Source: a virus
Direction: 5' to 3' (one strand)
IMG/VR virus record: IMGVR_UViG_3300044713_000119
Coordinates: 2,692-66,691 of that record
Length of the DNA stretch: 64,000 bases
Position 1 is the first letter of the stretch. Each line of letters begins with the position of its first letter. The translations under genes were made by a program, and so were the position numbers. Positions 7,413 through 41,157 of the stretch are shown one piece after another. A model generated the notes under the pieces. The model saw only the letters and a program-made list of their open reading frames with translations, was not told the DNA's origin and did not search any database.

Positions 7413-8966
7413 TCACGCAGTCCGAGCTTGCCGTAGCTTCACAACTTCAGTCATAAATTCCTGATTGAAGGTGGAAGTGATACGGCCGTCATGCTTCGCC
7501 AGTACGTTCTGGCGGGCCTGGGCTTGCAGTTGCTCTTCTGTGATGGCTTTGCCACCAGGAGCCGCTGCAGCCGAGACGCTCGAAGGATTCATCCGGTCAC
7601 GGTTGATCTGCGTGTCAATGGTTTCATGCTTGGCTTTGTTGCGGTCAACCACGGCTCCGAACCCCGGAAGGACTTTCTCCGCGGCTATCGGAATACCGAT
7701 TTCGAGGTATTCGCGGTTGAGTGCGACGAGGTCTTTGCGAGCCTGTTCGGTTTGGCCACGATCAAAGTTGGCAAAATAGATGCTCTTCAGACGGTTGTAC
7801 TCGCGGTTTCCAGCCAGCCATTTCGCGCACTCGCTGAAAATCTCCGAAGTAGCTTTCGTCTTGAGGGCATCATTTAGCCCCGTCATGTTTACGATTGCGC
7901 CGGCCATCGTGGATCCGACGGCAACGGTGTCATTAAGTACAGAACCTTCAAAAACCTTTTCGCCAGCTTCTTTCGTTTTCGCATCGCGTGCGCGCGAGTC
8001 TTTAAGTTCGCGGTCGGCAGCATCCAACCGTGCTTGAACCTCTGGGGAGACTGCAGCAGGCGCGCTGCCCGGCTTGCGGTAGCCGTTCTGGGCGAATTTC
8101 TGGATCTCTTGAGCCGCGTCGGCCAAGGCTTCGTAATAGCCTTTGTCTTCATCGCTTGTAGCCTGGGTAGCCAATTGGCGCAAAGTTTGTTCGCCTTGTG
8201 CGGTCCAGAACTGCCCTGCCATGTCGATAAACCGCGTGACTGAGCCATCCGTTTGGAAGGCCTTGCCGTCCGCAGTCTTCAGCGGTTGACCGTCTTCACC
8301 AGTGATCGCACTCAGTGGCAGTAGGCGATCCATGATGAAACTGTCGAACGTGGCCATATCCTTGATACCGAGGAAGCCGTCTTCGACGTCGTAGAAGTGA
8401 GCAGCGTTTTCCTGCATGTGTTTTGCGGCTGCGAGTGTTGGAGCAATCGCCTTGTACTGACTGGTTTCAGCCGCTAGGCGTGCGTTCGCAACCAGCGTGT
8501 CTTTGTCGAGTCCCTTCGCAGCCATTTGCGCAGCGAATGCAGGGTCTTCGTCAAAGGCTTTCGCAATCGTTTCGGCCGGCAGTGGGCCAATTTTGTCGAG
8601 CGGGTTCGGTGCAACTGCTTCCGGTTTTGCTGGCTCGCCAGGCTTTGGCTCTTCTACTTTTGCGGGCTCGCCCGGCTTGGGTTCTTCTGCCGCAACCGCT
8701 TCCGGCGGCTTCTCTTCCGGCTTCTTGCCAGCAAGAGCGGCTTCGAACTGGTTTTGAGGAACTTTCGCGAGCTCGTCGCGGAGTTTGTCAAGCTGACTCT
8801 TCGGCTCTGCGCTCGCCGGGGCTGCTGCCGCAGGCGCCGCAGGTGTTGATGGAGTTGCGGGAGTTGCTGGGGAAGATGGCGCGGAACTTGCACCGCTTCC
8901 TGGTGCTGAACTTACCGATGGAGCAGACGTGCCTCCACTAGCCGGTGCTGCTGGTGTGTCTGGCAT
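7413..8966 (-). CDS. Capsid scaffolding/assembly protein
   Basis: 517 aa with Pro/Ala/Glu-rich disordered N-terminus (EEPKPGEPAK twice) and helical body; located between portal and capsid. Confidence 0.7.
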   Translation of the reverse strand: MPDTPAAPASGGTSAPSVSSAPGSGASSAPSSPATPATPSTPAAPAAAAPASAEPKSQLDKLRDELAKVPQNQFEAALAGKKPEEKPPEAVAAEEPKPGEPAKVEEPKPGEPAKPEAVAPNPLDKIGPLPAETIAKAFDEDPAFAAQMAAKGLDKDTLVANARLAAETSQYKAIAPTLAAAKHMQENAAHFYDVEDGFLGIKDMATFDSFIMDRLLPLSAITGEDGQPLKTADGKAFQTDGSVTRFIDMAGQFWTAQGEQTLRQLATQATSDEDKGYYEALADAAQEIQKFAQNGYRKPGSAPAAVSPEVQARLDAADRELKDSRARDAKTKEAGEKVFEGSVLNDTVAVGSTMAGAIVNMTGLNDALKTKATSEIFSECAKWLAGNREYNRLKSIYFANFDRGQTEQARKDLVALNREYLEIGIPIAAEKVLPGFGAVVDRNKAKHETIDTQINRDRMNPSSVSAAAAPGGKAITEEQLQAQARQNVLAKHDGRITSTFNQEFMTEVVKLRQARTA

Positions 8967-24687: not shown

Positions 24688-26343
24688 CTAGTTGACCAAC
24701 TCAACGTGCAAGTCCAGCAACTGTGGCCCGGTGGTCTCAGCCGAAGAGGTCTGGAGGAACACAACAAATAGCGTGTCCTGGTCCAGCACGTCTGCAGTGA
24801 TTGCTCCGGTTGCCTGCTCGGGTGCCGAGATGGCCACTGTGGTTCCTGCCTGCAAGCCATCAATCAACCAGCCGCTAGGCATAATGCTGCCCGTTGCGCC
24901 CGTAGCGTTTGTATCCAAGTTGCACTGGAAACTCACACTGTAGGCTGCGGTGGTCGTGGTATGGGTCTCAAGCAACGTGCAAAGCACGATCGGAGTTCCG
25001 GTAGTGAAGTCGGTCAAATCTCCGAGTTCCACCGCAATTTCCGGCGCGGTGCCACCGGTGGTTGGGGTGTACGCTGCCTTGCCTGTAATCCGCAAGGTCT
25101 GACCGATGTAGTTCAGTACGCCCGCAGGCAACTGGATGGTGCCAAGAACGCCCGACTGTCCAGCCGTCAGAGCCACGGTATGGATAAATGGTCCGTAGTT
25201 GGTCTCAAAGCCTGGCAAGCCAAGATGCGAGGTAGGAGTAAAAGCAAACGTGGTGTGGCTGATTGGATTCGGATTGTAGGCCGCTGCCACGCCGCCAGCC
25301 TGCGGAACCAATTGGCTGTGGACGTAAGGTGTTGGGAAGACTCCGTTCGATCCGACTTCACCATACGCGGTGTTGGTGATCGCGCAGGTTGGGTACGGAG
25401 TGAACGGACTCAGCGTACAAGTCGAGGACGTCACTGGTATTCGGTAAGCCGTGGTTAGATAGGCAAGCCCGATGTACGGCAGCCAGCCTACACAGCCAGT
25501 TTCAGCCGCCGGCGCCGTGAAGTTAATCGCGAGCGAGCCTGCTGAGGTGTAGTGCGCGGTAGTCGAGGCTGCACTTTCCCCACCAAGTACATCCACGCAA
25601 GTGACAGCTACGTACTGAGCGGCGTTGGTCCAGGTACCGACCGCCGTGCCATCGCAAACGGTAGTCGTGCCACCGCACGTCGCAGTCGCAACTCGAACCG
25701 CCGGCGTGGTCAGAGCTGTCAGTGTGCTGGGCTGGATGGTGAAATACATCGGCGTGGACGCCTGGCCGCGGAAGTACTCAATGGTCATCCACCCAGGCAA
25801 GCCGTTCGGAGCCTGGCCGGTGATGTTGGCTATGGTCAGACCTGAATCACCACTGGCTGTGACCATGGATTCACCGCGGGCATAAGCATCGTTCAAAGCT
25901 TCCATCAGCCCGTTGTCGCCACTGCCAAGTTGCACATTCGCAGAGTGCGCATTGGCAAACGTTGCGGTAAACCCGCAATTGATAGGGTTGACAGCGCTCG
26001 GACCAGCAGCCGAAGGAGCGGTAATGGCTGTTGGAGTAACTGATTCCGAGTTCGCGCCATCGTAGATTTGGATGGGCACATTGACCGCAAAGATCGAGCC
26101 CCAGGCGATTGCTTTACCATCGCTACCAACTCGCGGATTGCAGTTGTTCAAGGTAACGCTCGTCGAGGTTGCGGTGACGGCATTGAGGGTCTTGTCAGTC
26201 CAATTCGCGTAACTGGACACAAGGATTCTGCCAGCCTGTTGTGTAGGGTAGCCAGGCTGGACGGGAATGGCCTGACCGAACGCGCCTGCCAGTGCACTCA
26301 GGGTGATGGCAAGCAAGGACACTAGCAAACTTGTTCGTTTCAT
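24688..26343 (-). CDS. Signal-peptide-bearing virion structural protein
   Basis: MKRTSLLVSLLAITLSALAGAFG-Q; Thr/Gly/Ala-rich with FN3-like YVAVTCVDVLGGES segment; RBS AAGGAG. Confidence 0.7.
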   Translation of the reverse strand: MKRTSLLVSLLAITLSALAGAFGQAIPVQPGYPTQQAGRILVSSYANWTDKTLNAVTATSTSVTLNNCNPRVGSDGKAIAWGSIFAVNVPIQIYDGANSESVTPTAITAPSAAGPSAVNPINCGFTATFANAHSANVQLGSGDNGLMEALNDAYARGESMVTASGDSGLTIANITGQAPNGLPGWMTIEYFRGQASTPMYFTIQPSTLTALTTPAVRVATATCGGTTTVCDGTAVGTWTNAAQYVAVTCVDVLGGESAASTTAHYTSAGSLAINFTAPAAETGCVGWLPYIGLAYLTTAYRIPVTSSTCTLSPFTPYPTCAITNTAYGEVGSNGVFPTPYVHSQLVPQAGGVAAAYNPNPISHTTFAFTPTSHLGLPGFETNYGPFIHTVALTAGQSGVLGTIQLPAGVLNYIGQTLRITGKAAYTPTTGGTAPEIAVELGDLTDFTTGTPIVLCTLLETHTTTTAAYSVSFQCNLDTNATGATGSIMPSGWLIDGLQAGTTVAISAPEQATGAITADVLDQDTLFVVFLQTSSAETTGPQLLDLHVELVN

Positions 26344-26365
26344 ACTTTGGATTCTCCTTGGAGAG

Positions 26366-29300
26366 TTATTGGGTTTGAACGACTGAAACATGGACGTCGT
26401 AGCTCACTGCTCCACCGCTGCAGGTGCCAGTGGTTAAAGTTGTGGTGTAGGAAATGTTGGTCGAAGAAGTCGCAAACGCCGGCACTGTACCGCCGATATA
26501 CCCCGCAGCTACCGATTGTGTCGTCCCCAGAGTCAACGCTGTCCCAGGGGTAAAAGACCGTGCGTTCGAGCCATCCGTCCAATTCAGTGTGATGTTGACG
26601 GTTCCTGATCCACTTCCGCAGAGCCCACTTTGGTCAAGGTAGTAGGTTGCGAGGAAACTGCCCCCGCTGGACGGCACCGCCAACGTCTGAGTCGAGAGGT
26701 TACCTGTCTGCCCGAGCTTATTCGAGACCGCATACACCGGGGTAAGGCCGACACCCACGGTCGAAGTGCCGTTGTAACTGGTGGCTAATCCTCCTATAGA
26801 AAGCGTTCCGGCTAGCGCCATATTGCCGCTCGAGTTGAGTGTCGAGGTGGCGGAAGGTGTCTGAACGGCTTCTGTGCCGCCACCAGTCACAATAGCCGTG
26901 CTCGTGAGCGTGGCCGCGCCGGTAACCACATTCGCTTTCGCGATGCCGCAGTCTTTTCCGTCAACTCCGACTGCTCCGCTCAGGTTATCGACACAAAGCA
27001 GATGATTGGTGGTCGGCGTGCCAGTCTGATTGAACCCCATCAGCGGCTCGGCGCCGGCGTTGTTTGCGTTGACTGATGGCCAATGGTTCGTAGAATCTCC
27101 GTAGATGAGATCGAAGCCTGCTTCACCGGAGGGAGCAACCATTTCGCCTAGACTCAGGCCGCCTTGAGTCTCAAACGGCAAAGTCGCGAGCACACCATTA
27201 CTGCCTGGACCGGTACCGACATAGCCCTGGGTGCCAAAGATGGCGTTATTGAAGGTCAGTCCAACTGCGTCAAACGATAGCGGCGCGTTGCCGGCACCGT
27301 TGGTAATCCAATAGTTGTTCCCAAAGCTTGAGTTCTGAATCGTCCACTGACACTGGCGGGGGCTACCTCCGCCGCAAGCTGTAGAGCCGGAGGCGTTGAG
27401 GATTCGCAAGCCATCCGTCAGCACGCTTTGGCAGTAGTAGCCTTGATTGTCGTGGAAGTTCAGGCCATCGACAACCAAGGTGTCCACCGCCTGCCCATTT
27501 CCAAGGTTGATACTGATTCCGTAACCAGCATCGCAGATCCGATTATCGTTGATCTCGATCTTACCCAGCAGACTAGGAGTGCCCGCAGGAGCTCCGGTGG
27601 TCTTGAAGAACACCAGAAATCCGCCACTGCCATTATTGATAACCGTACCGCTTGAGTTCACGTTGCAGAGATAGGCTTTGTTGTGGTGAGCGTGTCCACC
27701 CAAGCCGCCGACCGAGTAGCACTCCGAGGCCACGTTTTGAACTGTGTTGTTTGCGATCTCCCAATCGGTCGCGGACGGAGTAATCTGCATGCCATGGCAG
27801 CCTGTTGCGGCCGAGGTATTGTTCCCGGTGCATGCCATGTCAGTACCCAAGTGGTCGCCGCCGACAACATCGTTCTCGAGGATGTTGCCCGAGTACAGAA
27901 TGTTTTGGGTCCAGGCAAAGTGCCCGAAGGAAATCAGATTCACCGCGTACTGCGTGTTCGCGGTATCGTTGTCATAGAACTTGTTGTTGATGATCTGCTT
28001 CAGCCCAGGGTAAGGTCCGTTGGCGTTCGCATTCTGCTGCAGAGCTTGAGCGGAGTTCTGAGTAAACGTGTTGTTTCGAATCGTATAGGTATCTGAGTTC
28101 GTCAGATTCAGCCCAGCGCCGCCGCAATTGTTTACAAAGTTGTCTTCGAAGATAAACCCGCTCGAGACCCCAGCTGTGGTTGTGGCCACACAGATCATGC
28201 CGCTACCTGTATCACCGGACGCCAGTCGGTTGCCGTTGAATGTCATCTTCCGGATGGCCACATTCTGGATCGTTGAAGAACTGGCGCCGACCGTCAGCAA
28301 CGTGCCCGCGCCTGTCGGGGTCGTGGCATTGATAATCGTCTGCCCGTAAACCCCTTCAAACTCAACACCGGAGACGGTAACGCTCATCGTCGTCGAGCCC
28401 AAAGTGAACGCGCCAGCGGGCCAAATATATTTCACGTTCGCCTTGTTTGCCGCGAAGTTCGTCGTTACCGTGTTGGCGGCAGGGAGGTTATGACCATCGC
28501 AAACTCCACCACCAGAAGGAAGAGCTGCGGTGCAGGAGTTGTACTTCGCGAAAGCGTCAGCACCTGAGCAGGTGCTGACATCGAGAACCGCAGTCGTAGC
28601 TGTGACCGTCGACGAGCTCGCAGCGGTGACGAAGCCGCACTGCTGGAACGTCGGGAACGTCGAGTAGTTTTGAGCCTTGACGAAGGCTGTGGTCGCAACT
28701 GTGGTCGAACTGTCGCCTGTGGCCGGAGTTGGCGCGGTCGGTGTACCGGTCAGTGCGGGAGAAGCCAATGGGGCCACATTCGAAGATCCGCCTGCGGCTG
28801 TCCCAATCAAGAAGCCGCCCTGAGAACTAAGCGGTTGGGCTGGACCCGAGGCTGTGCAATTCGTCAGCGGCGAGTTGATCAGTTGATACGTGCCTGAGCC
28901 GCCAATGCACTGGCCACCATTGCCTGTAATAGAGCAGTTTTCAATGATCGTGTTCGAACCAGAAACGTTGATCCATGGGCTCGGAATTACGCTGGCACCG
29001 TTGATGAAGGTTGCCGCAGTACATTTCAGGTGAAAATTGTTGCCTGAGATGAAGATATCCGCGCCAGCAACGAGCGCAAGTTGCACCGAGTCGAGGTTGA
29101 TCTGGATGTCGTTCTGGGTGATCGTCAGAACCGAACTGCCACCCGCGCCGGTAGTCTGAGTTCCCGTCTTCTCTGTTTCGTCGCAAACCCCTCCGGTAGC
29201 TCCGGTAAGCAGCTCGTTCATGCAAGTGCGGAAATCTACGAACGGATCGGAGGTTGTTGGGAGACCAAGCCCGGAGGAATTGATTCGACGCAGGTAAGGC

Positions 29301-30718
29301 GCTAGCTGCGCAATCTGCTGGCTAGCTGACCCTGTGTCGCTACTCACATTCCAATAGAGATTCTGGCCAGCTTGGAAGCGAATGCTGCCACTTGTGGCAT
29401 TCGGCTCCGTACCTGGGGTCGCGCAACTGGTTGTACTCAAACCGCCAACCACCGTGTCGTAACACCACATCCCCTGGGGAAAATTAAGAATGCTTCGTTG
29501 GGTGACGGCCGTACCGTTGTTTTTGATCAGGTTGTACCCACCACCACCACCGCCGCCTGAGGCTGAAATCGAGACTGCGTTCCCCCCGGTCGGTGTCAGT
29601 GTGATGTTCGAACCAGCAATCAGGTTCAACCCGGTCTGGCCAGCATTGTTGATGCTATTCGTCTGAAAGACCAACGGACCATTAAGGTCGCTGTAATTTC
29701 CTGAAAACGCTACGTTCGCCAGCGCGCGCCAACTCTGATTCCCAACCAAAGCCGTCGAGCTCGAGGCAATGCCTGTTCCCAACTGCGCCGTTGGCACCAA
29801 CCCCATCACCAAACTGGCTTTCGCAGCCAGCCCGTTGTCCACATACTGCTTTGTCGCCGCCTGAAGCGCGCTCACCGGATCCGCAGCCAGCGTGATTGCA
29901 CCCGTCATGGTGCCACCGGTTAGCGGCAGGAATCCAGTGACCGTCGTCGGAATGTACTGCGAGCCGTTGTACCCAAGAAACTGACCCGCCATGGGTGCGG
30001 TGCTGTTTACAGCCACTCCCTGAATCGAGGTCGCGTTCCCACTTCCTCCGGCCGCGCCCGGGGTGTAGCAGAGCAGGGGCGTTGACCAGATCAGCGCTTG
30101 CCCGTTCGCCGGCGCCGTGGTACACACTGCAAAGCCTTGAATCTGAGTCGCATTCGCGCCGGTCGCTGTTAGACCTGTGACGGTGATACCGGAGAAATCA
30201 ACTGTGCCGGGACCCTTCCATGAGAACGTTGTGCCAGCCGGTTGCATGATCTTCTGATTCTGGGTGGGATTCGAGAAAATCAGGCCAAAGCCTGGCGGCG
30301 GCGGAGTGCCTGGTCCGAGCGAGAACGGCTGCGCTGTGGCGAGGTTGAAGGTGCTGCCTGCGAGAATCTGGTAGTTTAGGTCCCCAACTAATGGAGTCTG
30401 CTGATCACTCCAAGCTGTTACATGCCAAAGGGTTGAATAGGAGTTCCCGCACGTGATTTCATCATTGCCGTAGATCGTAGCCGGCAAATCGCTTTGGCGC
30501 AGGACGATATGCTTTTGGACGATCGATGCGGGGATGGTCGGAACCGAAGGAACGTTGAATCCACAGTAGTTCAGATCCAACGTGATGTAGGCGAACGGGA
30601 GCGGCTGGGTGTTCGGTCCGACAAACGTTGCTGTGACTGTAGCGGTGGCGAAGGCTGGAATAACTGAGGCAGTGGCAAGCAGAAGTAGAGCGAAGAGACG
30701 AACGAAGAATTTACCCAT
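26366..30718 (-). CDS. Tail fibre/tailspike with signal peptide and beta-helix domains
   Basis: Start MGKFFVRLFALLLLATASVIPAFA; canonical fibre repeats FLPLTGGTMTGAI...AATKQYVD and APLASPALTGTPTAPT...ATTAFV; right-handed beta-helix region. Confidence 0.8.
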   Translation of the reverse strand: MGKFFVRLFALLLLATASVIPAFATATVTATFVGPNTQPLPFAYITLDLNYCGFNVPSVPTIPASIVQKHIVLRQSDLPATIYGNDEITCGNSYSTLWHVTAWSDQQTPLVGDLNYQILAGSTFNLATAQPFSLGPGTPPPPGFGLIFSNPTQNQKIMQPAGTTFSWKGPGTVDFSGITVTGLTATGANATQIQGFAVCTTAPANGQALIWSTPLLCYTPGAAGGSGNATSIQGVAVNSTAPMAGQFLGYNGSQYIPTTVTGFLPLTGGTMTGAITLAADPVSALQAATKQYVDNGLAAKASLVMGLVPTAQLGTGIASSSTALVGNQSWRALANVAFSGNYSDLNGPLVFQTNSINNAGQTGLNLIAGSNITLTPTGGNAVSISASGGGGGGGYNLIKNNGTAVTQRSILNFPQGMWCYDTVVGGLSTTSCATPGTEPNATSGSIRFQAGQNLYWNVSSDTGSASQQIAQLAPYLRRINSSGLGLPTTSDPFVDFRTCMNELLTGATGGVCDETEKTGTQTTGAGGSSVLTITQNDIQINLDSVQLALVAGADIFISGNNFHLKCTAATFINGASVIPSPWINVSGSNTIIENCSITGNGGQCIGGSGTYQLINSPLTNCTASGPAQPLSSQGGFLIGTAAGGSSNVAPLASPALTGTPTAPTPATGDSSTTVATTAFVKAQNYSTFPTFQQCGFVTAASSSTVTATTAVLDVSTCSGADAFAKYNSCTAALPSGGGVCDGHNLPAANTVTTNFAANKANVKYIWPAGAFTLGSTTMSVTVSGVEFEGVYGQTIINATTPTGAGTLLTVGASSSTIQNVAIRKMTFNGNRLASGDTGSGMICVATTTAGVSSGFIFEDNFVNNCGGAGLNLTNSDTYTIRNNTFTQNSAQALQQNANANGPYPGLKQIINNKFYDNDTANTQYAVNLISFGHFAWTQNILYSGNILENDVVGGDHLGTDMACTGNNTSAATGCHGMQITPSATDWEIANNTVQNVASECYSVGGLGGHAHHNKAYLCNVNSSGTVINNGSGGFLVFFKTTGAPAGTPSLLGKIEINDNRICDAGYGISINLGNGQAVDTLVVDGLNFHDNQGYYCQSVLTDGLRILNASGSTACGGGSPRQCQWTIQNSSFGNNYWITNGAGNAPLSFDAVGLTFNNAIFGTQGYVGTGPGSNGVLATLPFETQGGLSLGEMVAPSGEAGFDLIYGDSTNHWPSVNANNAGAEPLMGFNQTGTPTTNHLLCVDNLSGAVGVDGKDCGIAKANVVTGAATLTSTAIVTGGGTEAVQTPSATSTLNSSGNMALAGTLSIGGLATSYNGTSTVGVGLTPVYAVSNKLGQTGNLSTQTLAVPSSGGSFLATYYLDQSGLCGSGSGTVNITLNWTDGSNARSFTPGTALTLGTTQSVAAGYIGGTVPAFATSSTNISYTTTLTTGTCSGGAVSYDVHVSVVQTQ

Positions 30719-30884
30719 AGCGAACCCATGAGCCCAATAACCAAGACGGGAACCAACGTGACCGCAACAATCTACGCTGAATCCGCTGAGGGAAAAGTGA
30801 CCCAAGCCTATGGCTCTGCCACCAAAGGAACTGATCACCAGCGAAGAATCGCCAGCATGCTTCATTTCTCTGTGCGGCTGTCAT
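30711..30884 (-). CDS. Small hypothetical protein
   Basis: ATG overlaps the upstream TGA; Trp/Arg-rich, 57 aa. Confidence 0.4.
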   Translation of the reverse strand: MTAAQRNEACWRFFAGDQFLWWQSHRLGSLFPQRIQRRLLRSRWFPSWLLGSWVRYG

Positions 30885-31177: not shown

Positions 31178-31376
31178 ATTTTCTGATGCTCGGCTTCGGC
31201 GCGCCGGCGGGCGGTATCTCTTGTGGCTGGATCAGCGCCCTAAGACCTGCAACGCTGTAGAACGAAGTTTACGCACGCACACGCAGAAGGAGGCTTGGAG
31301 CCTGACACCCCAAGCCTCTGGCCCGATCCACAAAGGTGGAGACTCACTTGATGCTTTTCCATGTACGTGTGCGCCA

Positions 31377-31406
31377 ATTATTCGCACAGTGAAAAACAAT
31401 TGTCAA
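31377..31406 (-). promoter_or_regulatory. Sigma70-like promoter for the leftward late operon
   Basis: TTGACA (31406-31401), 18 nt, AATAAT (31382-31377) in an AT-rich intergenic gap. Confidence 0.55.
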
Positions 31407-31462
31407 TCAAAATCTTGTGTTGAAATCTCGGACGCCACTATTAGGTGGGTAGGTCAGAAGTA

Positions 31463-32554
31463 CTACAGGGTTTCTAGGGCTAGAATCCTCCGGCCGATCC
31501 ACTTAATCACTGAAACCGTCACGGCGTTACCAAGTGCCCTGTAACGCGCCGAATCTAATCCTTGGGGCAACACGGGATAGTCCACCCTTTCGGAAAGTTC
31601 TGAAGCGTCTCGCACTCCGTGGGAGTCAGACGGCGAACTGACATGCAGGAATCCGCCTTGAGCATCGTTGTCGTCGGCTCCTCCGCTGCCAAGGTGTCGC
31701 AGAGCGGTTGTGACGTAATTGGTGTTGTGCCCTTGTCCTGTTCCGCCGGGGTCAGAACGCAAGCAAAACGCCTTTTCTCCGGCATCATCTGCCCCTTTGC
31801 CAGCATGGAGCAATCGAGAGTGTCCGTCGTCTGCGTGTCGTCCCAATACGAGGTTGTCCGATCCGTCTCCTCTTGGGCTGCTGTGGCCGTGGTGTCCTGC
31901 GGGGGCACTGAGAGCGCTTGCGACAAGTCCAACGGGGTAGTCGCTCTTTCCCGAGCCGCCCTTGGCCCACGTTCCGTCGATAGGTGCGGTGACGATGTTG
32001 AAATCATCTTCTTGGTGCCTTCCGCTTGAGTTGCCAGTGACTCCAGTGCCGCTTGTAAGCGGGACGGCAACGTCCTGCCCCGCTTCTCGGCCCGTCGCAA
32101 TATCCCCTTCGCCGCCCTCGGGCTCAAAAAGAACCTCTGGGGGACATGGCTTTCCAAAACGTCCGACAATGAACAAACGGCGGCGGCGCTGGGCGACTCC
32201 GAAAAACTGGCTGTCAAGCACGCGCCACGAAACCCCATACCCGCACTCGACCATAAGAACGCGGAGGACTTCTGCAAAGTCTCTTCCGTGGTTTGAACTG
32301 AGAAGTCCGGGAACATTCTCGAAGAGGAACCAAGTGGGTCGAAGCTCGCGCAGGATTCTTGCAAACTCGTAAAACAATCCTGTGCGTGCGCCCGCGAGTC
32401 CGGCCCGCTTTCCGGCAACCGAGGCATCTTGGCAAGGGACGCCGGCAGAGATGAGGTCAACCCACGGCAGGTAAGAATATCCGTCGCCCGCTGCGCCTTC
32501 TGGAAGTGTGTCTTTAGAACTGCCAGACAAAACGGTTCTCGCTCGACTTGCCAA
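31463..32554 (-). CDS. C5 cytosine DNA methyltransferase, polypeptide carrying motifs IV-VIII and X
   Basis: DLISAGVPCQD (IV), FENVPGL (VI), QRRRRLFIVG (VIII), ARYRALGNAV (X); TTG start 5 nt after GGAG. Confidence 0.8.
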   Translation of the reverse strand: MASRARTVLSGSSKDTLPEGAAGDGYSYLPWVDLISAGVPCQDASVAGKRAGLAGARTGLFYEFARILRELRPTWFLFENVPGLLSSNHGRDFAEVLRVLMVECGYGVSWRVLDSQFFGVAQRRRRLFIVGRFGKPCPPEVLFEPEGGEGDIATGREAGQDVAVPLTSGTGVTGNSSGRHQEDDFNIVTAPIDGTWAKGGSGKSDYPVGLVASALSAPAGHHGHSSPRGDGSDNLVLGRHADDGHSRLLHAGKGADDAGEKAFCLRSDPGGTGQGHNTNYVTTALRHLGSGGADDNDAQGGFLHVSSPSDSHGVRDASELSERVDYPVLPQGLDSARYRALGNAVTVSVIKWIGRRILALETL

Positions 32555-32844
32555 GATGTCTCCATTCCTGCGGCTTCCAAGCCAAGATCAAATCCGCCGA
32601 TGCCTGCGAAGAGGGAGCCGACTCTCATAGCGTCGAGTATGGGGCCATCATGTGCAGCCGGTACACTTCGGCAACCCGGTGAAGGCTTGAATTGAAACTC
32701 CATGGTTATGGAGCGCTTCGCTTCGGGATCGGTATTCAGGTCAGAGACGTTCTTGAGCAATCGCGCGACTTCATGCTCAAAGAGCTCCGGCACCGCCCCT
32801 CCGCAGATGTTGCCGATATTGCACTCGATGGGACCATCGTGCAT
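31555..32844 (-). CDS. C5 cytosine DNA methyltransferase, overlapping-frame polypeptide carrying motifs I-III and IX (MTase part starts at ATG 32628)
   Basis: SLFAGIGGFDLG (I), WQVE (II), TDI (III), RRLTPTECETLQNFPKGWT (IX); the N-terminal 72 aa resemble an unrelated phage protein. Confidence 0.75.
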   Translation of the reverse strand: MHDGPIECNIGNICGGAVPELFEHEVARLLKNVSDLNTDPEAKRSITMEFQFKPSPGCRSVPAAHDGPILDAMRVGSLFAGIGGFDLGLEAAGMETSWQVEREPFCLAVLKTHFQKAQRATDILTCRGLTSSLPASLAKMPRLPESGPDSRAHAQDCFTSLQESCASFDPLGSSSRMFPDFSVQTTEETLQKSSAFLWSSAGMGFRGACLTASFSESPSAAAVCSLSDVLESHVPQRFFLSPRAAKGILRRAEKRGRTLPSRLQAALESLATQAEGTKKMISTSSPHLSTERGPRAARERATTPLDLSQALSVPPQDTTATAAQEETDRTTSYWDDTQTTDTLDCSMLAKGQMMPEKRRFACVLTPAEQDKGTTPITSQPLCDTLAAEEPTTTMLKADSCMSVRRLTPTECETLQNFPKGWTIPCCPKD

Positions 32845-32934
32845 TAGAAATCCTCCAGACTTTCAACAGGAGCCGCCACTTTTCCAGTGTGGCAGCCCCT
32901 ATTTTCCTTGCCTACCTGTGCTCTTCGTGAAATA

Positions 32935-34470: not shown

Positions 34471-35766
34471 ATGGCCGCAACAAATGTACTACAAGAAGTC
34501 GATCCCAAACAGCAGTGGTTAGCCGACCGGAAGCACTTTATCGGCGGCTCGGAAATCTATCAACTCCTCAACGAACCTCAGTATGGTCAAGGTTGTGTGC
34601 GTGCTCTGGCCTACGACAAGTTGGATGTTCCGCCCGACTACCCGGACCAGATTGACAATCCGCTCCGGTCGCGCCTATTCAAGAGGGGCCACATCATGGA
34701 GCCTGTTGCGGCTGCACTGTATGCCGAGGAAACTGGCCGCAAACTGCGCAATGCTCCAATGGATGCAAACGGGTTACCGAAGGCCAAGATTCATCCTGAG
34801 TTTCCATGGGCAGGTGTCCATTACGACCGCTTGGTTCTCGCTGGCAGTGGAGGCGTAACCGAAACCGGTACCGCAGAAATCAAATCTCGCGGCAAGGGTC
34901 CATACCTGCAGATGCTCAAGTCTGGTTGTTTCCCAGGCGACGTGTTACAGACTCAGCACGGCATGTTCGTGAACCGTCACAACTGGGGCACGTTCATTGC
35001 GATCGGTTTATTCGACTCACGTGGCGACGAAGACGGTATGGGCGCCCTGCCACTCAAACACTTCGACATGAAGCGCGACGAACTGATCATCGACGTAATC
35101 AAACACGCTGGCGAAAGGTTCGCGGAGACCGTGTTCGTAAAGCGCGAACTCCCCGACCGCCCGTTTGCCGGCGACGATGCCCGTTGTAAGGTCTGTGCGT
35201 GGCGCATGGAGTGCCGCGGGGAAGAACTGGACGCCGCCGAAGCCGCGCGGCTGAAAGCCATCAAGAAAGGCGACCGTGCCTTAGTCCAGATCGAGAACGC
35301 AGAACTAGCTCAACGGCTGGCGAGCCGGGATCTCACCAAGGCACAGCTTCGCACCATCACCAACCCAGACCCAAGCAAGAACTTCCCTGATCCTGGGGAT
35401 CTTGACCGCGAAGAATCGCGCATCAAGGAACTGCTGGGAGAGAATGTGGCTGTCAATGTCGAAGGCTACGGCAAGGTCTATTACGACTGGCGTGCTGGCC
35501 GTACCACGATGGAGATTGGCAAAGCGATGGAATACCTGAAAGACATCGCCAAGCAAGCCTCTGGTCTGGCCGTGGCCGCCGAAGTTTTATCCAATAAACC
35601 TGGCTGGAACGAAGTCGAGTTTGCTGAGATGGTGGGCACACTGGCTCAGGCAGTCACGGTGCTCAAGAATGTAGAAGCGATGCCGGAGGTTGTCTCATCG
35701 AAGTTCTGTAAGGTCGGAGAACCTTACCGGATGCTGCAAACGTTTCCCAACAAGGTTTCTTCCTGA
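34471..35766 (+). CDS. YqaJ-like (lambda Exo family) recombination exonuclease
   Basis: WLADRKHFIGGSE, RGHIMEP, YDRL, AEIKS, LQTQHGM PD-(D/E)XK motifs plus CKVCAWRMEC. Confidence 0.85.
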   Translation: MAATNVLQEVDPKQQWLADRKHFIGGSEIYQLLNEPQYGQGCVRALAYDKLDVPPDYPDQIDNPLRSRLFKRGHIMEPVAAALYAEETGRKLRNAPMDANGLPKAKIHPEFPWAGVHYDRLVLAGSGGVTETGTAEIKSRGKGPYLQMLKSGCFPGDVLQTQHGMFVNRHNWGTFIAIGLFDSRGDEDGMGALPLKHFDMKRDELIIDVIKHAGERFAETVFVKRELPDRPFAGDDARCKVCAWRMECRGEELDAAEAARLKAIKKGDRALVQIENAELAQRLASRDLTKAQLRTITNPDPSKNFPDPGDLDREESRIKELLGENVAVNVEGYGKVYYDWRAGRTTMEIGKAMEYLKDIAKQASGLAVAAEVLSNKPGWNEVEFAEMVGTLAQAVTVLKNVEAMPEVVSSKFCKVGEPYRMLQTFPNKVSS

Positions 35767-35874: not shown

Positions 35875-37044
35875 ATGGCCACTCGAAGCATTCACACAAC
35901 ACCACTCGAAGATGACTTTCAGCAAGACGAAAGCCCCACCACAGAACTCGCCGTGCGCCGCGACGTGGCGCGAGTCGTTCAGGAAGTCCAGGGAGCAATC
36001 ATCGTTGCGCAGCGCTTTCCGCGCAATGAAGACGAAGCCCGCGTCAAACTATTGCGCGCCTGCAAGCGTCCAACGTTTGCAGAAAACGCCGAGTATGAGT
36101 TTCCCCGCGGCGGCAATGATGTATCCGGGCCCAGCGTCCAGCTTGCACGCGAAGCTGCGCGAGTCTGGGGAAACATTCAATATGGTTTTGAGATCGTTTC
36201 CGAAGACGAAGTCTGGCGCTCGATTCGTGCCTACGCTTGGGATGTAGAGACAAACTCGAAACCGTTCCAAGAGGACCGCTTCAAGAAACTTATCTACCGG
36301 AAAGCGAATGGTGGCCAGTGGGTAAAGCCGGATGAGCGCGACTTGCGGGAGCTCACCAACCGTCGGGCAGCCATCTGTTACCGCAACTGCATCCTGCAAG
36401 TCATTCCAAGCGACTTGATTCAGGAAGCGATCGAGCAGTCACGGATGACTCTACGCGACCGCGCCGCCGCAGATCCAGACGGCGAACGCAAACGTATCTT
36501 GGACGCCTTCGCTAACGACCTGAACGTGATGCCGAACTCAGTGGAGGCAATCCTTGGGCACTCTGTTACCGAGGCAAGCCCGGTCGAGATTGCTAAACTG
36601 CGAGCCATCTACAAATCGATCCGTGACGGCAACTCAACGCTAAACGACTACCTGCAATCGTCGGCACCAGGCCAGGACACCAGCCTTGCCGGCAAGAGTG
36701 CAGAAGTCATCACTGGCATTCGGGACCGTTACACGAAGTCTCAGCAACCAGTCTCTGAGGGTTCGAAAGCAGCCGTAGGCCATACGGAAGCCTCCGCGAA
36801 CCCTCAGACGCCGTCGGCGCAACAGACCTCCCCCAAAGAGGAGCCAGCGCCGGCGGCAGAATTATCTCCAGCCGAGAAAGAACGCAAGAGCATGCTGGAA
36901 GCAGAAGCCGACCGGCAGAAACGAGCACTGGACGAGCACTTACGCTCCAAGAAGCACGGCGAGCACCCGGCCACGCCGCTCGCTTCTCCAGAAGGCATTT
37001 TTGATGATAACGATGGAATAAATCGTGGCAGGAGATCCGAGTGA
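35875..37044 (+). CDS. Putative single-strand annealing protein / recombinase
   Basis: EVQGAIIVAQRFPR...YEFPRGG..VSGPSVQLAREAARVWGN family, typically found next to YqaJ; acidic C-terminal tail. Confidence 0.6.
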   Translation: MATRSIHTTPLEDDFQQDESPTTELAVRRDVARVVQEVQGAIIVAQRFPRNEDEARVKLLRACKRPTFAENAEYEFPRGGNDVSGPSVQLAREAARVWGNIQYGFEIVSEDEVWRSIRAYAWDVETNSKPFQEDRFKKLIYRKANGGQWVKPDERDLRELTNRRAAICYRNCILQVIPSDLIQEAIEQSRMTLRDRAAADPDGERKRILDAFANDLNVMPNSVEAILGHSVTEASPVEIAKLRAIYKSIRDGNSTLNDYLQSSAPGQDTSLAGKSAEVITGIRDRYTKSQQPVSEGSKAAVGHTEASANPQTPSAQQTSPKEEPAPAAELSPAEKERKSMLEAEADRQKRALDEHLRSKKHGEHPATPLASPEGIFDDNDGINRGRRSE

Positions 37045-37694
37045 GTCTAACACGTAACGCGATCAGGGTTGGCCAGCAGTTCGGTAAGCTCACGGCCTGC
37101 TGGCCAGTCATGCGTGTCAAATATGGCAAACAGTTGTGGCTGGTCATGTGCCGCTGCGGAGAAATGCGTGTTTGCCAATCAGATAATCTCAGGAGCGGGC
37201 ACACCGCCTCTTGTGGCTGTCTTATTGCCGACCGTCGCAGCGCTTTGTCTAAGACTGAACGCCAGCGAACATACGCGAAACAGTGGGCTCTAAAACACAG
37301 ATGCCGAGTGATTAGCGCTAGAACCAGATGGCATCGCCTGAATCCCAAAGCCCGTAGTGCCCACAAACTTGTCGAGTATGCTTTGAAATTGGGTGTTCTT
37401 GTGAAATCAGAGACGTGCGAGGGCTGTGGCGCAGCGAGCGAACTGGAAGGTCACCACCATAATGGATACGACAAACCATTAGAGGTACAGTGGCTCTGCT
37501 CGCCTTGTCACGTCGCAACAATGAATCGCCCAAATGCACGGAAGCTGTACTGTAAACGACAGCATGAGTTTACTCCCGACAACACCTACACTGACCCAAC
37601 CGGGAAACGGTATTGCAAGACGTGCGAGCGCATCAGGGCTCAACGTCGGCGGAAGCGTGGCGCCGAGGATGAAGTTAGACGCGGTGGCGAGTAG
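37041..37694 (+). CDS. HNH homing endonuclease with N-terminal Cys domain and C-terminal zinc finger
   Basis: GQQFGKLT...CRCG...LRSGHTASCGC; CEGCG...EGHHHNGYDKPLEVQWLCSPCH; CKRQHEFTPDNTY...CKTC. Confidence 0.8.
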   Translation: MSLTRNAIRVGQQFGKLTACWPVMRVKYGKQLWLVMCRCGEMRVCQSDNLRSGHTASCGCLIADRRSALSKTERQRTYAKQWALKHRCRVISARTRWHRLNPKARSAHKLVEYALKLGVLVKSETCEGCGAASELEGHHHNGYDKPLEVQWLCSPCHVATMNRPNARKLYCKRQHEFTPDNTYTDPTGKRYCKTCERIRAQRRRKRGAEDEVRRGGE

Positions 37695-39281: not shown

Positions 39282-39616
39282 TCCAACAAGCTCTCGACTT
39301 TCCCGATGAAACACAAGCAGGCATCCAGGCAGCCTATGACCACGCCAATAAGCAATGGCGTGCGACCGCCTACTGTGTCGTAGGAAAACTAGCGGCCGAG
39401 AGAAGCACATTTACCTGTGACGACGTAGCCGCGGAGATGGACAAGTTCTATGCCCGGACTCACAACCTCAGAGCTCTCGGCCCGGTAATGATTCGCATTC
39501 GCAACGAGAAAATAGCAGAACCCACAGGAGAGTACGTCAACTCCGTGAGAAAGAACCAGCATCACTGCCCAATTAAAGTTTGGCGGTCGTTGGTGTGGAG
39601 GTTGAAGAAGCCGTGA
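39278..39616 (+). CDS. Winged-helix-like phage protein
   Basis: FTCDDV...RALGPV...H..PIKVWRS family pattern. Confidence 0.55.
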   Translation: MIQQALDFPDETQAGIQAAYDHANKQWRATAYCVVGKLAAERSTFTCDDVAAEMDKFYARTHNLRALGPVMIRIRNEKIAEPTGEYVNSVRKNQHHCPIKVWRSLVWRLKKP

Positions 39617-41157
39617 AGGCGAGAATCCTGGTTGGCGACGTGCTGGAGAAACTGCGCACACTGGCTGATGAGTCCGTGCATTGTGTGGTCACGTCGCCGC
39701 CCTACTGGGGCCTGCGCAACTATGGGATTCCGGCAAGTATCTGGCCCGTCCAGCGAAGTCAAGGCGTTGTTCGCTGCAGCAACGGGGACCATCTCTGGGG
39801 CGACATGGTAACCGAGAACGCGACCAACCACACCGACAAACGTCGCTGGCAGCACACTCGCAACGGCCGAGACGAAGAACAGCCAAGCGATAAGCGTGTC
39901 GCGTGGCTGCGCACCGAAGTTCCACAGGGGCAATTCTGTTCTCTTTGCGGAGCATGGGCCGGCTGCTTCGGCCTTGAGCCCACTCCTGAACTCTACGTCG
40001 AACACTCGGTAACGATCTTCCGCGAGATACGCCGGGTACTCCGCAAAGACGGAAGTTTGTGGTTGAACCTTGGAGATTCCTACTCCAACGACACAAAGTG
40101 GGGAGGCACCTCGGGAGGAAAGAACTATACAAGTGCGGCTGGAGGTTATCAAGGCCAGCGGGTGCGCCGCGGCAAGGACTGCGACCCCAAGCGTGGTCCG
40201 GCTGCTCCAGGACAACCATTTCAAGCGAACAATTCCGGCTTGAAACCAAAAGACCTGGTTGGAATGCCGTGGCGTGTCGCTTTTGCACTGCAGGCCGATG
40301 GCTGGTGGCTTCGCCAATGGATGCCATGGATCAAGAGAAATAGCATGCCTGAGAGTTGCGAGGACCGCCCCGGAACCTCAGTCGAAACGATGTTCCTACT
40401 CTCGCAGTCTGCCCGGTACTTCTACGATCACGAAGCGGTAAAGATGCCAGCAGCGGGAACGGCACACGACAGAGGCAATGGCGTCAATCCGAAAGCGCTG
40501 CATAATGCGACCCGCAAGGACCGAGCGAAAGCAGACCACATGCGCGGTCCTACGGAAATGATGAACGGTATCCGCCCACGCCAGAATGATTCGTTCTCCG
40601 CTGCCGTGAATGAGGTTGTGCTGGCGCGCGGTCGACGCCAGCACGATTGGTTCATAGACTCCTGGCAGGGGTTGCTTACTGACGATGCCGGCGAACCCTT
40701 GGCGCTGGTCGTGAATCCAGCACCATTCCCAGATGCGCACTTTGCCACCTTCCCGCCGGCGTTGGTTGAGCCCTGCATCCTAGCTGGGACCAGCGAGAAA
40801 GGTTGCTGCTTAGCCTGCGAAGCACCGTGGGAACGGATCGTAGAAAACAAGCCGATGGTGATTGACAGGAGTCCGAGGACGCATGAGATGGGGCGAACAC
40901 GCACAAGCGGCACGATGGTTGAGCCGGCTAAAAGTATTACCGTTGGCTGGCAGCCCACATGTGACTGTGAAGGCCCACAAAAGACGGTTCCCTGTAAGGT
41001 GCTTGATCCCTTCGGCGGCTCTGGAACAACCGCCATGGTGGCCCTACGCTATCACCGAGACGCCATCCTGGTGGAGCTCAACCCAGGGTACGCCGCCATG
41101 GCGCAGCGTCGTATCAAGAACGACGCTCCCATGTTCAACGAGGTCACCACTGCATGA
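39613..41157 (+). CDS. N4-C/N6-A DNA methyltransferase (beta class)
   Basis: VTSPPYWGLR catalytic motif; HFATFP; VLDPFGGSGTT SAM-binding motif; GTG start overlaps the upstream stop. Confidence 0.92.
   Translation: MKARILVGDVLEKLRTLADESVHCVVTSPPYWGLRNYGIPASIWPVQRSQGVVRCSNGDHLWGDMVTENATNHTDKRRWQHTRNGRDEEQPSDKRVAWLRTEVPQGQFCSLCGAWAGCFGLEPTPELYVEHSVTIFREIRRVLRKDGSLWLNLGDSYSNDTKWGGTSGGKNYTSAAGGYQGQRVRRGKDCDPKRGPAAPGQPFQANNSGLKPKDLVGMPWRVAFALQADGWWLRQWMPWIKRNSMPESCEDRPGTSVETMFLLSQSARYFYDHEAVKMPAAGTAHDRGNGVNPKALHNATRKDRAKADHMRGPTEMMNGIRPRQNDSFSAAVNEVVLARGRRQHDWFIDSWQGLLTDDAGEPLALVVNPAPFPDAHFATFPPALVEPCILAGTSEKGCCLACEAPWERIVENKPMVIDRSPRTHEMGRTRTSGTMVEPAKSITVGWQPTCDCEGPQKTVPCKVLDPFGGSGTTAMVALRYHRDAILVELNPGYAAMAQRRIKNDAPMFNEVTTA

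Follow-up and report, generated by a model that had tools for sequence, protein, structure and literature searches.

The window, the whole 64,000-nt stretch of viral DNA analyzed here, carries on its minus strand two ORFs that share 1,000 nt (31555..32554 in the ORF listing of the window) and hold between them the motifs of a C5 DNA methyltransferase. We refer to the two reading frames as A and B and to their products as beta-prime and alpha-prime. Neither ORF lies wholly inside the other: frame A starts 74 nt (ATG 32628) or 290 nt (ATG 32844) upstream of the frame B start, and frame B ends 92 nt downstream of the frame A stop. The features of frame A, and the junction at which the register changes, are:

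31555..32844, minus strand: frame A ORF (beta-prime), 429 aa from ATG 32844 or 357 aa from ATG 32628, with motifs I–III, the beta core, a long linker and motif IX
32629..32844, minus strand: N-terminal extension of frame A, 72 residues upstream of the methylase part, putative product
32473..32628, minus strand: motifs I–III, the SAM-binding half, frame A, Pfam PF00145 positions 1-50
32593-32610, minus strand: motif I, FAGIGG, frame A
32473-32484, minus strand: TDIL, in the segment of motifs I–III, frame A
32444..32484, minus strand: junction from motif III (frame A) to the strand before motif IV (frame B), with a one-base register change
31984..32430, minus strand: beta core, frame A residues 67-215 counted from 32628, overlapping frame B motifs IV–VIII
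32032..32172, minus strand: SLSDVLE...GILRRAEKRG...ALESLA, segment of the beta core in which two confident helices are predicted
31765..31851, minus strand: SYWDD...TDTLD...KGQMMPEKRRF block, frame A, with third-position variation
31582-31638, minus strand: motif IX, VRRLTPTECETLQNFPKGW, frame A
31555-31557, minus strand: frame A stop

Those of frame B are:

31463..32554, minus strand: frame B ORF (alpha-prime), 363 aa, TTG start, with motifs IV–VIII, target-recognition loops and motif X
32552..32563, minus strand: likely frame B start, GGAG at 32560-32563, a 5-nt spacer and TTG at 32552-32554
32162..32443, minus strand: catalytic motifs IV, VI and VIII
32429-32443, minus strand: motif IV, GVPCQ
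32306-32323, minus strand: motif VI, FENVPG
32162-32191, minus strand: motif VIII, QRRRRLFIVG
31991..32059, minus strand: LTSGTGVTGNSSGRHQEDDFNIV loop module, also in single-frame relatives
31715..31771, minus strand: AFCLRSDPGGTGQGHNTNY block, common to single-frame relatives
31514-31555, minus strand: motif X, DSARYRALGNAVTV

Motifs I (FxGxGG), IV (PCQ), VI (ENV) and VIII (QxRxR) of the C5-methyltransferases are all present and split over the two frames, and motifs IX (RxLTxxE..LQGFP) and X (GNAV/GNSV) are both found, in different frames; by Pfam and TIGR00675, no one polypeptide at this locus holds the complete set. The match to PF00145 in frame A covers profile positions 1-50 only, corresponding to motifs I–III (E 2.5e-11), and that in frame B positions 58-160 only, corresponding to motifs IV–VIII (E 2.9e-39). 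Frame A scores 47.9 with TIGR00675, under the cut-off of 100.65, and frame B matches M.HhaI and M.HaeIII in the PDB (E 2e-16). The profile positions and motif coordinates bear out the original prediction, which had placed motifs I–III and IX in frame A and motifs IV–VIII and X in frame B, with about 1 kb stop-free in both frames. Its span for frame A was correct at the stop, 31555, and short at the other end, since the ATG at 32628 that it took as the start is internal to an ORF reaching 32844. Six nucleotides upstream of ATG 32844 lies GGAGGA, a strong Shine-Dalgarno sequence; ATG 32628 has none. The GGAG-N5-TTG start proposed for frame B was located in the sequence, and full-length frame B homologues (68% identity, 99% coverage) begin at the same point. 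The LTSGTGVTGNSSGRHQEDDFNIV module follows a consensus that frame B has in common with single-frame relatives, PLTxGxGxTGxxPGRRxEDDxNL.

The two-frame pattern extends well beyond the window. Our comparison set comprised the 80 of 140 sources that have a motif IV and VI anchor together with a motif IX match. In 47 related loci, motif IX is read in frame +1 with respect to motifs IV–VIII. These loci reduce to about 41 distinct cores because several are one contig present in two collections, and motif X is in frame 0 in 45 of the 47. Between motifs IV and IX, frame +1 is stop-free in all but one of the overlap loci (46/47), whereas frame +2 has 2-19 stops in every one of them (stop-free in none), and in each of the 32 relatives with motif IX in frame, frame +1 is interrupted by 1-29 stops. 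When synonymous codons were shuffled, the per-locus probability of an open frame +1 was 0.0-0.745, only modest evidence; we relied on frame +2 and the canonical relatives because shuffling preserves a set of codons in which stop-making pairs are already scarce. Judged by these comparisons, the two-frame pattern is more than chance. The full split is less widespread. Motifs I–III are in frame +1 in 14 loci, 13 identified by regex and one, L033, by eye, which we call I-shifted, and they are fused to motifs IV–VIII in at least 28 of the 47 (by regex), that is, in most close relatives. Of the split whose retention in homologues had been offered as a check, the motif IX part is present in the 47 loci and the whole arrangement in 14. 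A quick tree, rather than a careful maximum-likelihood search, requires at least three changes across its starred branches to account for the I-shifted state; the starred clade contains diverged members (L034, L001, L049, L004 and L035).

Of 33 distinct loci, 28 have a start codon with a Shine-Dalgarno-like motif for the second ORF. Such a start precedes frame B in eight of nine distinct I-shifted loci; L043 has no Shine-Dalgarno-like motif, L055 has an ambiguous start, and the frame B start is TTG. In the window, L034 and L049 alike, frame B begins at -111 from motif IV. A second-ORF start near -110 to -113 from motif IV belongs to frame B in these three I-shifted loci and to frame A in the fused loci L037, L039, L047, L053 and L062. 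We located the register change between motifs III and IV by comparison with the fused relative P0019 and by reading eight loci out in two frames; the junction sequences are of four distinct types.

Codon-phase entropy, computed on 40 overlap-clade and 27 canonical sequences, assigned selection to frame B over motifs IV–VIII and X, and to frame A over the SLSDVLE...ALESLA segment and motif IX. In the SLSDVLE...ALESLA segment the entropies were Hb1 1.32, Hb2 0.64 and Hb3 0.35, with an amino-acid entropy of 0.54 in frame A versus 1.83 in frame B. At motif IX the overlap clade gave Hb1 1.20, Hb2 0.21 and Hb3 0.05, the signature of frame A coding, whereas the same motif in the canonical relatives, our control, gave Hb3 1.53, as expected for an ordinary frame. 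Motif X had an Hb3 of 1.22-1.34, indicating selection in frame B. Over motifs I–III of the eight distinct I-shifted loci, frame A third positions had a value of 1.30 versus 0.67 and 0.65, and L001 and L049 differ there by 24 synonymous versus 16 non-synonymous changes in 46 codons, many of the differences being synonymous. As read from codon phase, these data show each frame to be under purifying selection within its own segments. Two smaller blocks fit into this pattern. The AFCLRSDPGGTGQGHNTNY block varies at the frame B third position (1.02) and is in frame in P0022 and P0008; by this measure it is selected in frame B. For the SYWDD...KGQMMPEKRRF block, frame A third positions gave 0.71 and 0.39 versus 0.0-0.34 among only four distinct sequences, which suggests that this block is apparently selected in frame A.

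The beta core places frame A in a larger family. This segment of about 150 residues is conserved and is itself under selection by codon-phase entropy. It matches phrog_16143 (E 5.7e-13, profile positions 62-130 of 139), 1,553 short proteins, and 277 phage and 563 plasmid records. A tblastn comparison aligned it to Streptococcus phage MM1 1998 (35.6% identity, E 1e-12), in which orf13 and orf14 are annotated as alpha and beta, orf14 as "C5 methyltransferase beta subunit". In MM1, as in the window, the nested ORF occupies frame +1 of the methylase gene and overlies motifs IV–VIII. The ORF of this type (MM1 orf14, PHROG 16143) opens shortly upstream of motif IV, closes about 50 codons past motif VIII and has the same motif series, W..G.G...CLT...ES....VCSLSD.LE. 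In MM1 and the relatives we call canonical, however, all ten motifs are on alpha and the nested ORF spans just ~140-165 aa, whereas in the window the nested ORF is extended at both ends and carries motifs I–III and IX, which alpha has lost. The window and 46 of 47 clade members share the extension to motif IX, so these are not short ORFs. No NCBIfam model matches the beta core or MM1 orf14, and searches with phmmer and with a 117-row profile matched the SLSDVLE...GILRRA segment to no PDB chain at E up to 10. The sequence searches thus give no support to a resemblance of the series SLSDVLE...YFLS...GILRRA to the region that follows motif VIII in single-chain enzymes, E. coli Dcm among them. Because the beta core is widespread and already annotated in MM1, we regard the window as a derived state of the known nested alpha/beta design. 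Of the different partition that had been proposed, the joint travel of motif I with motif IX stands; the arrangement is not a separate invention, and frame A holds the conserved beta core besides these motifs.

Structure prediction is consistent with association of the two chains. Co-folding of the frame A and frame B products gave ipSAE values of 0.84, 0.82 and 0.84, against 0.00 for the best of three controls, which supports the predicted binding of one to the other. The mark applied is reached by 58 of 80 solved complexes and by 2 of 110 mismatched pairs, a calibration that holds only roughly here because our own alignments were used. Contacts agree among the three runs to at least 50%, with a low partner pLDDT of 52-54. 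Predicted contacts join A1-62 to B25-40 and B333-361, A88-157 to B60-145, and A336-351 to B340-348; within these, motif I of chain A would touch motif X (A12-20 with B347-354) and motif IX of chain A would touch B340-348. Such a result is partly expected, because a split Rossmann fold reassembles in silico into something like the solved monomeric C5-methylases. In AF2 models, residues 1-50 of frame A (motifs I–III) had a pLDDT of 89-94, motif IX 93, and the SLSDVLE...ALESLA helices 85-97; the beta core modeled alone was confident only in its last two helices. Residues 52-150 and 200-330 of chain A alone are predicted to be disordered (pLDDT below about 60), and when the frame A model was compared by fold with PDB entries, methylases aligned to its first ~50 residues only (best E 6.4e-03).

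Two-chain C5-methylases are not without precedent. M.EcoHK31I, of which M.EaeI is an isoschizomer, has a beta chain of about 61 aa, and enzymes of the EcoHK31I type need both chains to methylate. In the ESM Atlas, the cluster "EaeI methyltransferase beta subunit family protein" resembles the beta core of the window (score 0.87), a lead only. According to two reports, the beta chain of M.EcoHK31I is encoded wholly within another frame of alpha, with motifs I–VIII, X and the TRD on alpha and motif IX on beta (PMC2836561, PMC3404938), and M.EcoHK31I was, on that description, the right precedent for the original prediction to invoke. As described there, both systems make two polypeptides from two frames of the same DNA, and in both motif IX is on the alternate-frame chain while motifs IV–VIII, the target-recognition region and motif X are on the other. 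The differences on the same description are that M.EcoHK31I alpha includes motifs I–III, which frame B lacks, and that its beta lies wholly inside alpha and has only motif IX, whereas the ORFs of the window are not nested one in the other. Unlike M.EcoHK31I beta, the beta-type chain of the window is 357-429 aa long and has motifs I–III and a conserved 150-residue core. The fused relatives L003 and P0019 have an alpha with motifs I–VIII, X and the TRD, as in the EcoHK31I type.

Other split enzymes divide elsewhere. In M.AquI, two chains that must associate are encoded by adjacent genes (PMC3404938), and in Mycobacterium phage Omega gp127/gp128 motifs I–VIII are separated from IX–X in adjacent genes; both are end-to-end splits in the variable region whose genes have no DNA in common. 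In the window, by contrast, the split falls between motifs III and IV and around motif IX, and 1,000 nt are read in both frames. Artificial fragments of M.HhaI, M.SssI, M.BspRI and M.BsuRI reassemble into active enzyme, the working bisection points lying in the variable region, unlike the III/IV break of the window, and the natural splits it describes fall in or after the variable region (PMC3404938). A literature search, with most subscription journals outside its scope, found no description of a natural C5-methylase split between motifs III and IV and no paper on the nested beta ORF across phage C5-methylases.

Could the interleaving arise from assembly indel errors in a normal single-frame gene? 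Of the 16 runs listed, only one contains the whole stretch, possibly as its source, and contigs rather than raw reads were compared; no RNA run is among the 16, which counts neither for nor against expression. A Logan contig of this run, X1, is identical over 31300-32900 with 0 gaps, in agreement with the assembly, although it is not independent support because X1 may be the source of this DNA. Independent support is provided by L033, from another metagenome, which has 94% core identity and the same split; the same three register changes occur in L033, L001, L034, L049 and others, all from other samples, and frame A is open and selected in 46 of 47 loci. Since the pattern recurs in independent assemblies it is not a sequencing or assembly error, and on this contig-level comparison we rejected that explanation as extremely improbable; the earlier argument that one sequencing error could not produce the pattern is upheld by its conservation in relatives. 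Slippage of the ribosome or of RNA polymerase deserves more weight, although we still judge it unlikely. A -1 frame change between motifs III and IV would join motifs I–VIII and X in a single chain, unshifted translation would yield a beta-type chain with motif IX, and the locus would be an ordinary EcoHK31I-type alpha/beta pair. The joined chain would be viable, as it is in fused relatives such as P0019, and because frame B has no stop in the 144 nt before motif IV, a frame change at any point in 32470-32590 would connect the two parts. However, frame A has no X_XXY_YYZ heptamer and the window no homopolymer of at least 5; a heptamer is present in only one of the eight distinct I-shifted loci and an A5 run in only two, so that no slippery heptamer or homopolymer run is conserved across the window and these loci. 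The junction sequences also differ between lineages, and frame B has a Shine-Dalgarno motif and start codon of its own in nearly all distinct I-shifted loci. The programmed frameshift near 32470 that the original prediction had offered as an alternative is disfavored by the same search for heptamers.

A somewhat less probable explanation, and again an unlikely one, is that the methylase lost its activity through the one-base change between motifs III and IV and that only the nested beta-core protein is still selected. Most relatives do keep motifs I–III fused, L004 and L036 carry a stop inside motif IV, and the beta core may have a role of its own because it exists in genes where the alpha chain is complete. 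Against this, the I-shifted loci retain motifs I–III, IV–VIII, IX and X in intact form, with purifying selection acting on each in its own frame, the state is common to a starred clade of diverged members, and both ORFs are stop-free over 1 kb.

We consider it probable that this soil phage C5 DNA methyltransferase gene consists of two ORFs that overlap almost completely, and that their products form a single enzyme. The best reading is an EcoHK31I-like two-subunit enzyme with a new partition, in which the SAM-binding half has been transferred to the beta chain. In this enzyme, beta-prime would supply the SAM-binding half (motifs I–III), the beta core of ~150 residues, predicted to lie against the catalytic half, a long and probably flexible linker, and motif IX; alpha-prime, translated from GGAG-N5-TTG, would supply the catalytic half (motifs IV–VIII), most of the target-recognition loops and the motif X helix. 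We infer that both chains are translated, assembled and active as a methylase, and the pair may be an obligate heterodimer. The arrangement probably originated in a widespread nested design with a +1-frame beta ORF inside phage C5-methylase genes. In the clade of the window motif IX would then have moved into the beta frame, as in M.EcoHK31I, and in its subgroup motifs I–III would have followed onto beta through a one-base shift of register between motifs III and IV. An indel of this kind would swap the N-terminal parts of two overlapping ORFs, such that after the presumed start swap the old alpha start would drive motifs I–III and beta, and the old beta start motifs IV–X.

On this analysis the locus is a conserved rearrangement of a known, little-noticed nested-gene design. 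We put forward more tentatively, as a proposal that falls a little short of probable, the broader account in which a 1-kb gene is read in two frames with the segments of the enzyme interleaved (motifs I–III, the beta core, the TL-KG block and motif IX in frame A; motifs IV–VIII, the loop modules and motif X in frame B), single-base indels between motifs III and IV have swapped the N-terminal domains without loss of function at least three times, and an ancestral, mostly unannotated +1 beta subunit is present in a large share of phage C5-methylase genes, including those of P1-like phage-plasmids of E. coli. If this is true, many "monomeric" phage Dcm-type enzymes are really two-chain enzymes. 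The nested beta ORF, mostly missed by annotation pipelines or called "hypothetical", may be something that many phage anti-restriction methylases require in order to be active or specific. Long overlaps between genes on the same strand are uncommon in bacteria and phages, and they are frequently contested. The reality of the 1,000-nt pair described here rests on frame-specific selection in dozens of independent assemblies, and since its two products belong to a single enzyme that is well understood, what each frame does can be read directly. The evolutionary move it implies is a simple one, in which a single indel would trade domains between overlapping ORFs. It would also add the motif III/IV boundary to the places where C5-methylases are naturally divided, an addition that could be useful for engineered split methylases.

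Frame A residues 62-330 are matched by 169 proteins of similar length. The 72-residue extension is without conservation in the relatives P0121 and P0124, and its residues 7-55 match phrog_997, "replication terminator" (E 1.1e-10).

The methylase locus is a real, conserved, dual-frame gene. Two minus-strand ORFs sharing 1,000 nt (31555-32554) divide the C5-methyltransferase motifs between them: Pfam PF00145 matches frame A only at profile positions 1-50 (motifs I-III) and frame B only at positions 58-160 (motifs IV-VIII), the part over which M.HhaI and M.HaeIII also align to frame B (E about 2e-16). Motif IX is read in frame A and motif X in frame B, so that both the two-frame pattern and the partition of I-III plus IX from IV-VIII plus X were correctly described, at the stated coordinates, in the original prediction.

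31555..32844, minus strand: frame A ORF, 429 aa (357 aa from ATG 32628, where the original prediction began it)
32629-32844, minus strand: putative 72-codon N-terminal extension of frame A, ahead of the methylase part, ATG at 32844
31463..32554, minus strand: frame B ORF, 363 aa, TTG start
32560-32563 (GGAG) and 32552-32554 (TTG), minus strand: GGAG-type motif and likely start codon of frame B
31582-31638, minus strand: motif IX VRRLTPTECETLQNFPKGW, read in frame A
31514-31555, minus strand: motif X DSARYRALGNAVTV, read in frame B

Homologues keep this split. Frame B has full-length homologues (identity at most 68%, coverage 99%) that start at the same point, likewise without motif I; among 120 listed, only 3 have the motif IX pattern in frame, and in about 46 (counted from the table) motif X is preceded by GVRDFAGLP, which DNA comparison identifies as the frame B reading of ECETLQGFP in frame A. 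We collected DNA from 32 viral, 80 metagenome (best 80 of 228) and 27 genome loci, and in 80 of 140 sources, the window included, motif IX was matched alongside a motif IV+VI anchor. Relative to that anchor (frame 0, frame B in the window), motif IX lies in +1, corresponding to frame A, in 47 loci, in frame 0 in 32 and in +2 in one; the 47 represent about 41 distinct cores, some being the same contig in two collections. Frame +1 is stop-free between motifs IV and IX in 46 of the 47, the exception being L102, with 12 stops, a long insert and 476 codons between the motifs. Frame +2 carries 2-19 stops in all 47, and frame +1 of all 32 in-frame relatives carries 1-29. Of the 47, 45 have motif X in frame 0 and one (L098) has it in +1; it was not found in L048. 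Stops interrupt frame B in three of the 47: L004 and L036, with one TAG each within motif IV, and L098, with eight stops; the other 44 keep it open.

In L004 and L036 the TAG replaces the glutamine codon of PCQ (reading PC*D), either by a nonsense mutation or, if the stop is recoded, without loss of the chain; L035, identical to both at the junction, has CAG there. L098, with motifs IX and X both in +1, is probably a broken single-frame gene, and L027 has both motifs in +2 and six stops in frame B. As to assembly, the window sits within a single 66.7-kb contig, and over 31300-32900 it is identical, with 0 gaps, to a Logan contig of run X1, which adds little support since X1 may itself be the source of the window DNA. 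The nearest independent relative, L033 (94% core identity), has the same layout.

Third positions of a coding frame are expected to vary most. We measured nucleotide entropy at frame B codon positions 1-3 (Hb1-3) in codon alignments of 40 overlap-clade sequences (motif IX in +1) and 27 canonical ones (motif IX in frame 0). In the overlap clade, motifs IV-VIII and X vary most at the frame B third position. Motif IX shows the opposite order (Hb1 1.20, Hb2 0.21, Hb3 0.05), a frame A signature; in the canonical relatives, our control, motif IX has Hb3 1.53, as expected for an ordinary frame. Directly past motif VIII, frame A reads CSLSDVLE..VPQRFFLSPRAAxGILRRAEKRGxxLPxxLxxALE, a segment that also has the frame A pattern (Hb1 1.32, Hb2 0.64, Hb3 0.35) and an amino-acid entropy of 0.54 in A versus 1.83 in B. 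From motif V to VIII, frame B third-position entropy is ~0.8 in the overlap clade against about 1.1-1.4 in canonical relatives, consistent with double constraint. Farther along the gene, four distinct sequences weakly suggest that SYWDD..TDTLD..KGQMMPEKRRF is selected in frame A and that selection switches to frame B at LRSDPGGxGQGHNT. Selection thus alternates between frames along the gene, interleaving its functional segments more finely than the two-frame partition had implied.

Pattern matching assigns the I-shifted state of the window, with motifs I-III also in +1, to 13 of the 47 loci, and L033 joins them by eye; at least 28 loci have motifs I-III in frame 0. Junctions between motifs III and IV of I-shifted loci fall into four sequence types, and parsimony on a quick tree (66 cores) requires five changes of state, at least three of them forced by well-supported branches. 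Over the motif I-III segment of eight distinct I-shifted sequences, the frame A third position stands at 1.30 versus 0.67 and 0.65, and many codon differences are synonymous, a pattern indicating that these motifs are probably still translated and needed after the shift. Frame B has a start codon 5-6 nt past a GGAG-type motif in eight of nine distinct I-shifted loci, the window with its proposed GGAG and TTG among them. In fused relatives (I-III joined to IV-VIII) it is frame A that has a start with a Shine-Dalgarno-like motif in this neighbourhood, around -110 to -113 or -158 from motif IV; both types together, the second ORF has such a start in 28 of 33 distinct loci. Given this shared neighbourhood, we infer that the two ORFs would exchange their N-terminal parts through a single indel lying between these starts and motif IV. 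Frame A has GGAGGA 6 nt before ATG 32844, and no Shine-Dalgarno sequence was found at the internal ATG at 32628. The putative extension matches phrog_997 'replication terminator' over its residues 7-55 (E 1.1e-10).

The simplest and best supported reading, which we consider likely, is that two chains assemble into the enzyme. Co-folding the two products, the check proposed at the outset, with frame A at 357 aa (109-row alignment) and frame B at 363 aa (99 rows used), gave ipSAE values of 0.84, 0.82 and 0.84 against 0.00 in the best of three controls, a mark that 58 of 80 solved complexes attained, as did 2 of 110 mismatched pairs. At least half of the contacts were common to the runs, with a partner pLDDT of 52-54. 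The predicted contacts of A1-62 with B25-40 and B333-361 would be the ordinary packing of motifs I-III on motif IV and the motif X helix, which the model may recall from solved monomeric enzymes. Others join A88-157, in the beta core (a conserved ~150-residue frame A segment overlapping motifs IV-VIII of frame B), to B60-145, with A129 and A130 against B110 and B111, and motif IX (A336-351) to B340-348. Modelled by itself, frame A is confident in three stretches only (residues 1-50, 150-200 and 330-350), and the beta core only in its last two helices, consistent with a frame A chain that folds on its partner. The alternative that a programmed frameshift near 32470 joins the frames fared poorly: we found no slippery heptamer in the window and one in only 1 of 8 I-shifted loci.

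Nested in the methylase gene is a genuine, ancient and widespread ORF that at least one annotator had already recorded. Canonical relatives too have the frame A entropy signal past motif VIII, and 20 of 32 canonical loci (27 distinct sequences) have a +1 stretch that stays open for 158-208 aa, stop to stop; its limits are conserved, lying in most at about -50 and about +436 nt from motif IV. Within canonical L005-L023 and L103-L113 these limits are strikingly constant in most, the end often an acidic EEE. Frame A residues 85-215, our beta-core query, match 277 phage records, lying under an annotated C5-methylase gene in all 30 rows listed save two 'hypothetical protein' rows; 563 plasmid records (448 Escherichia, mostly non-mobilizable); 1,553 short proteins (30-195 aa); and the beta core matches phrog_16143 (E 5.7e-13). 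In Streptococcus phage MM1 1998 (DQ113772.1), orf14 (7631..8056, frame +1), annotated 'C5 methyltransferase beta subunit', lies within orf13 (7480..8637), the 'alpha subunit', which unlike its window counterpart has all motifs including IX. A look-alike of the beta core, at 0.87 only a lead, is the Atlas cluster 'EaeI methyltransferase beta subunit family protein'.

Mycobacterium phage Omega (NC_004688.1 67900-69204) has an end-to-end split, gp127 with I-VIII and gp128 with IX-X, and an unannotated 159-aa +1 ORF of the beta-core family under gp127. Plasmids matching the beta core are P1-like; in the Pantoea plasmid NZ_CP134741.1 (82796-85222) the match falls within an unannotated 166-aa open stretch in +1 of an 809-aa C5-methylase/Dam fusion gene. 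A 351-aa protein, P0225, joins a beta-core-like C-terminus to HNH and UPF0122/UPF0175 Pfam domains; it may be a true fusion or stem from read-through of a gene upstream.

Among nested alpha/beta methylases, the one in the window is of the EcoHK31I/MM1 kind. M.EcoHK31I was aptly cited as the biochemical precedent: according to PMC2836561 and PMC3404938, its alpha carries motifs I-VIII, X and the TRD, and its beta, encoded in another frame inside alpha, carries motif IX. In M.AquI the split is end to end (PMC3404938). What is new in the window is that the SAM-binding half (motifs I-III), on alpha in M.EcoHK31I, has shifted onto the beta chain and that the overlap spans almost the whole gene. In the literature searched we found neither a nested beta ORF across phage methylases nor a natural C5-methylase split between motifs III and IV described.

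Two ORFs adjoin the methylase, of 1,499 aa (26366-30865) and 567 aa (24688-26391), neither with a match in a PHROG search. Its phage-type neighbours are:

34471-35766, plus strand: RecE-like exonuclease
37041-37694, plus strand: HNH endonuclease
39580-41157, plus strand: second DNA methyltransferase (phrog_67, E 1.9e-49)
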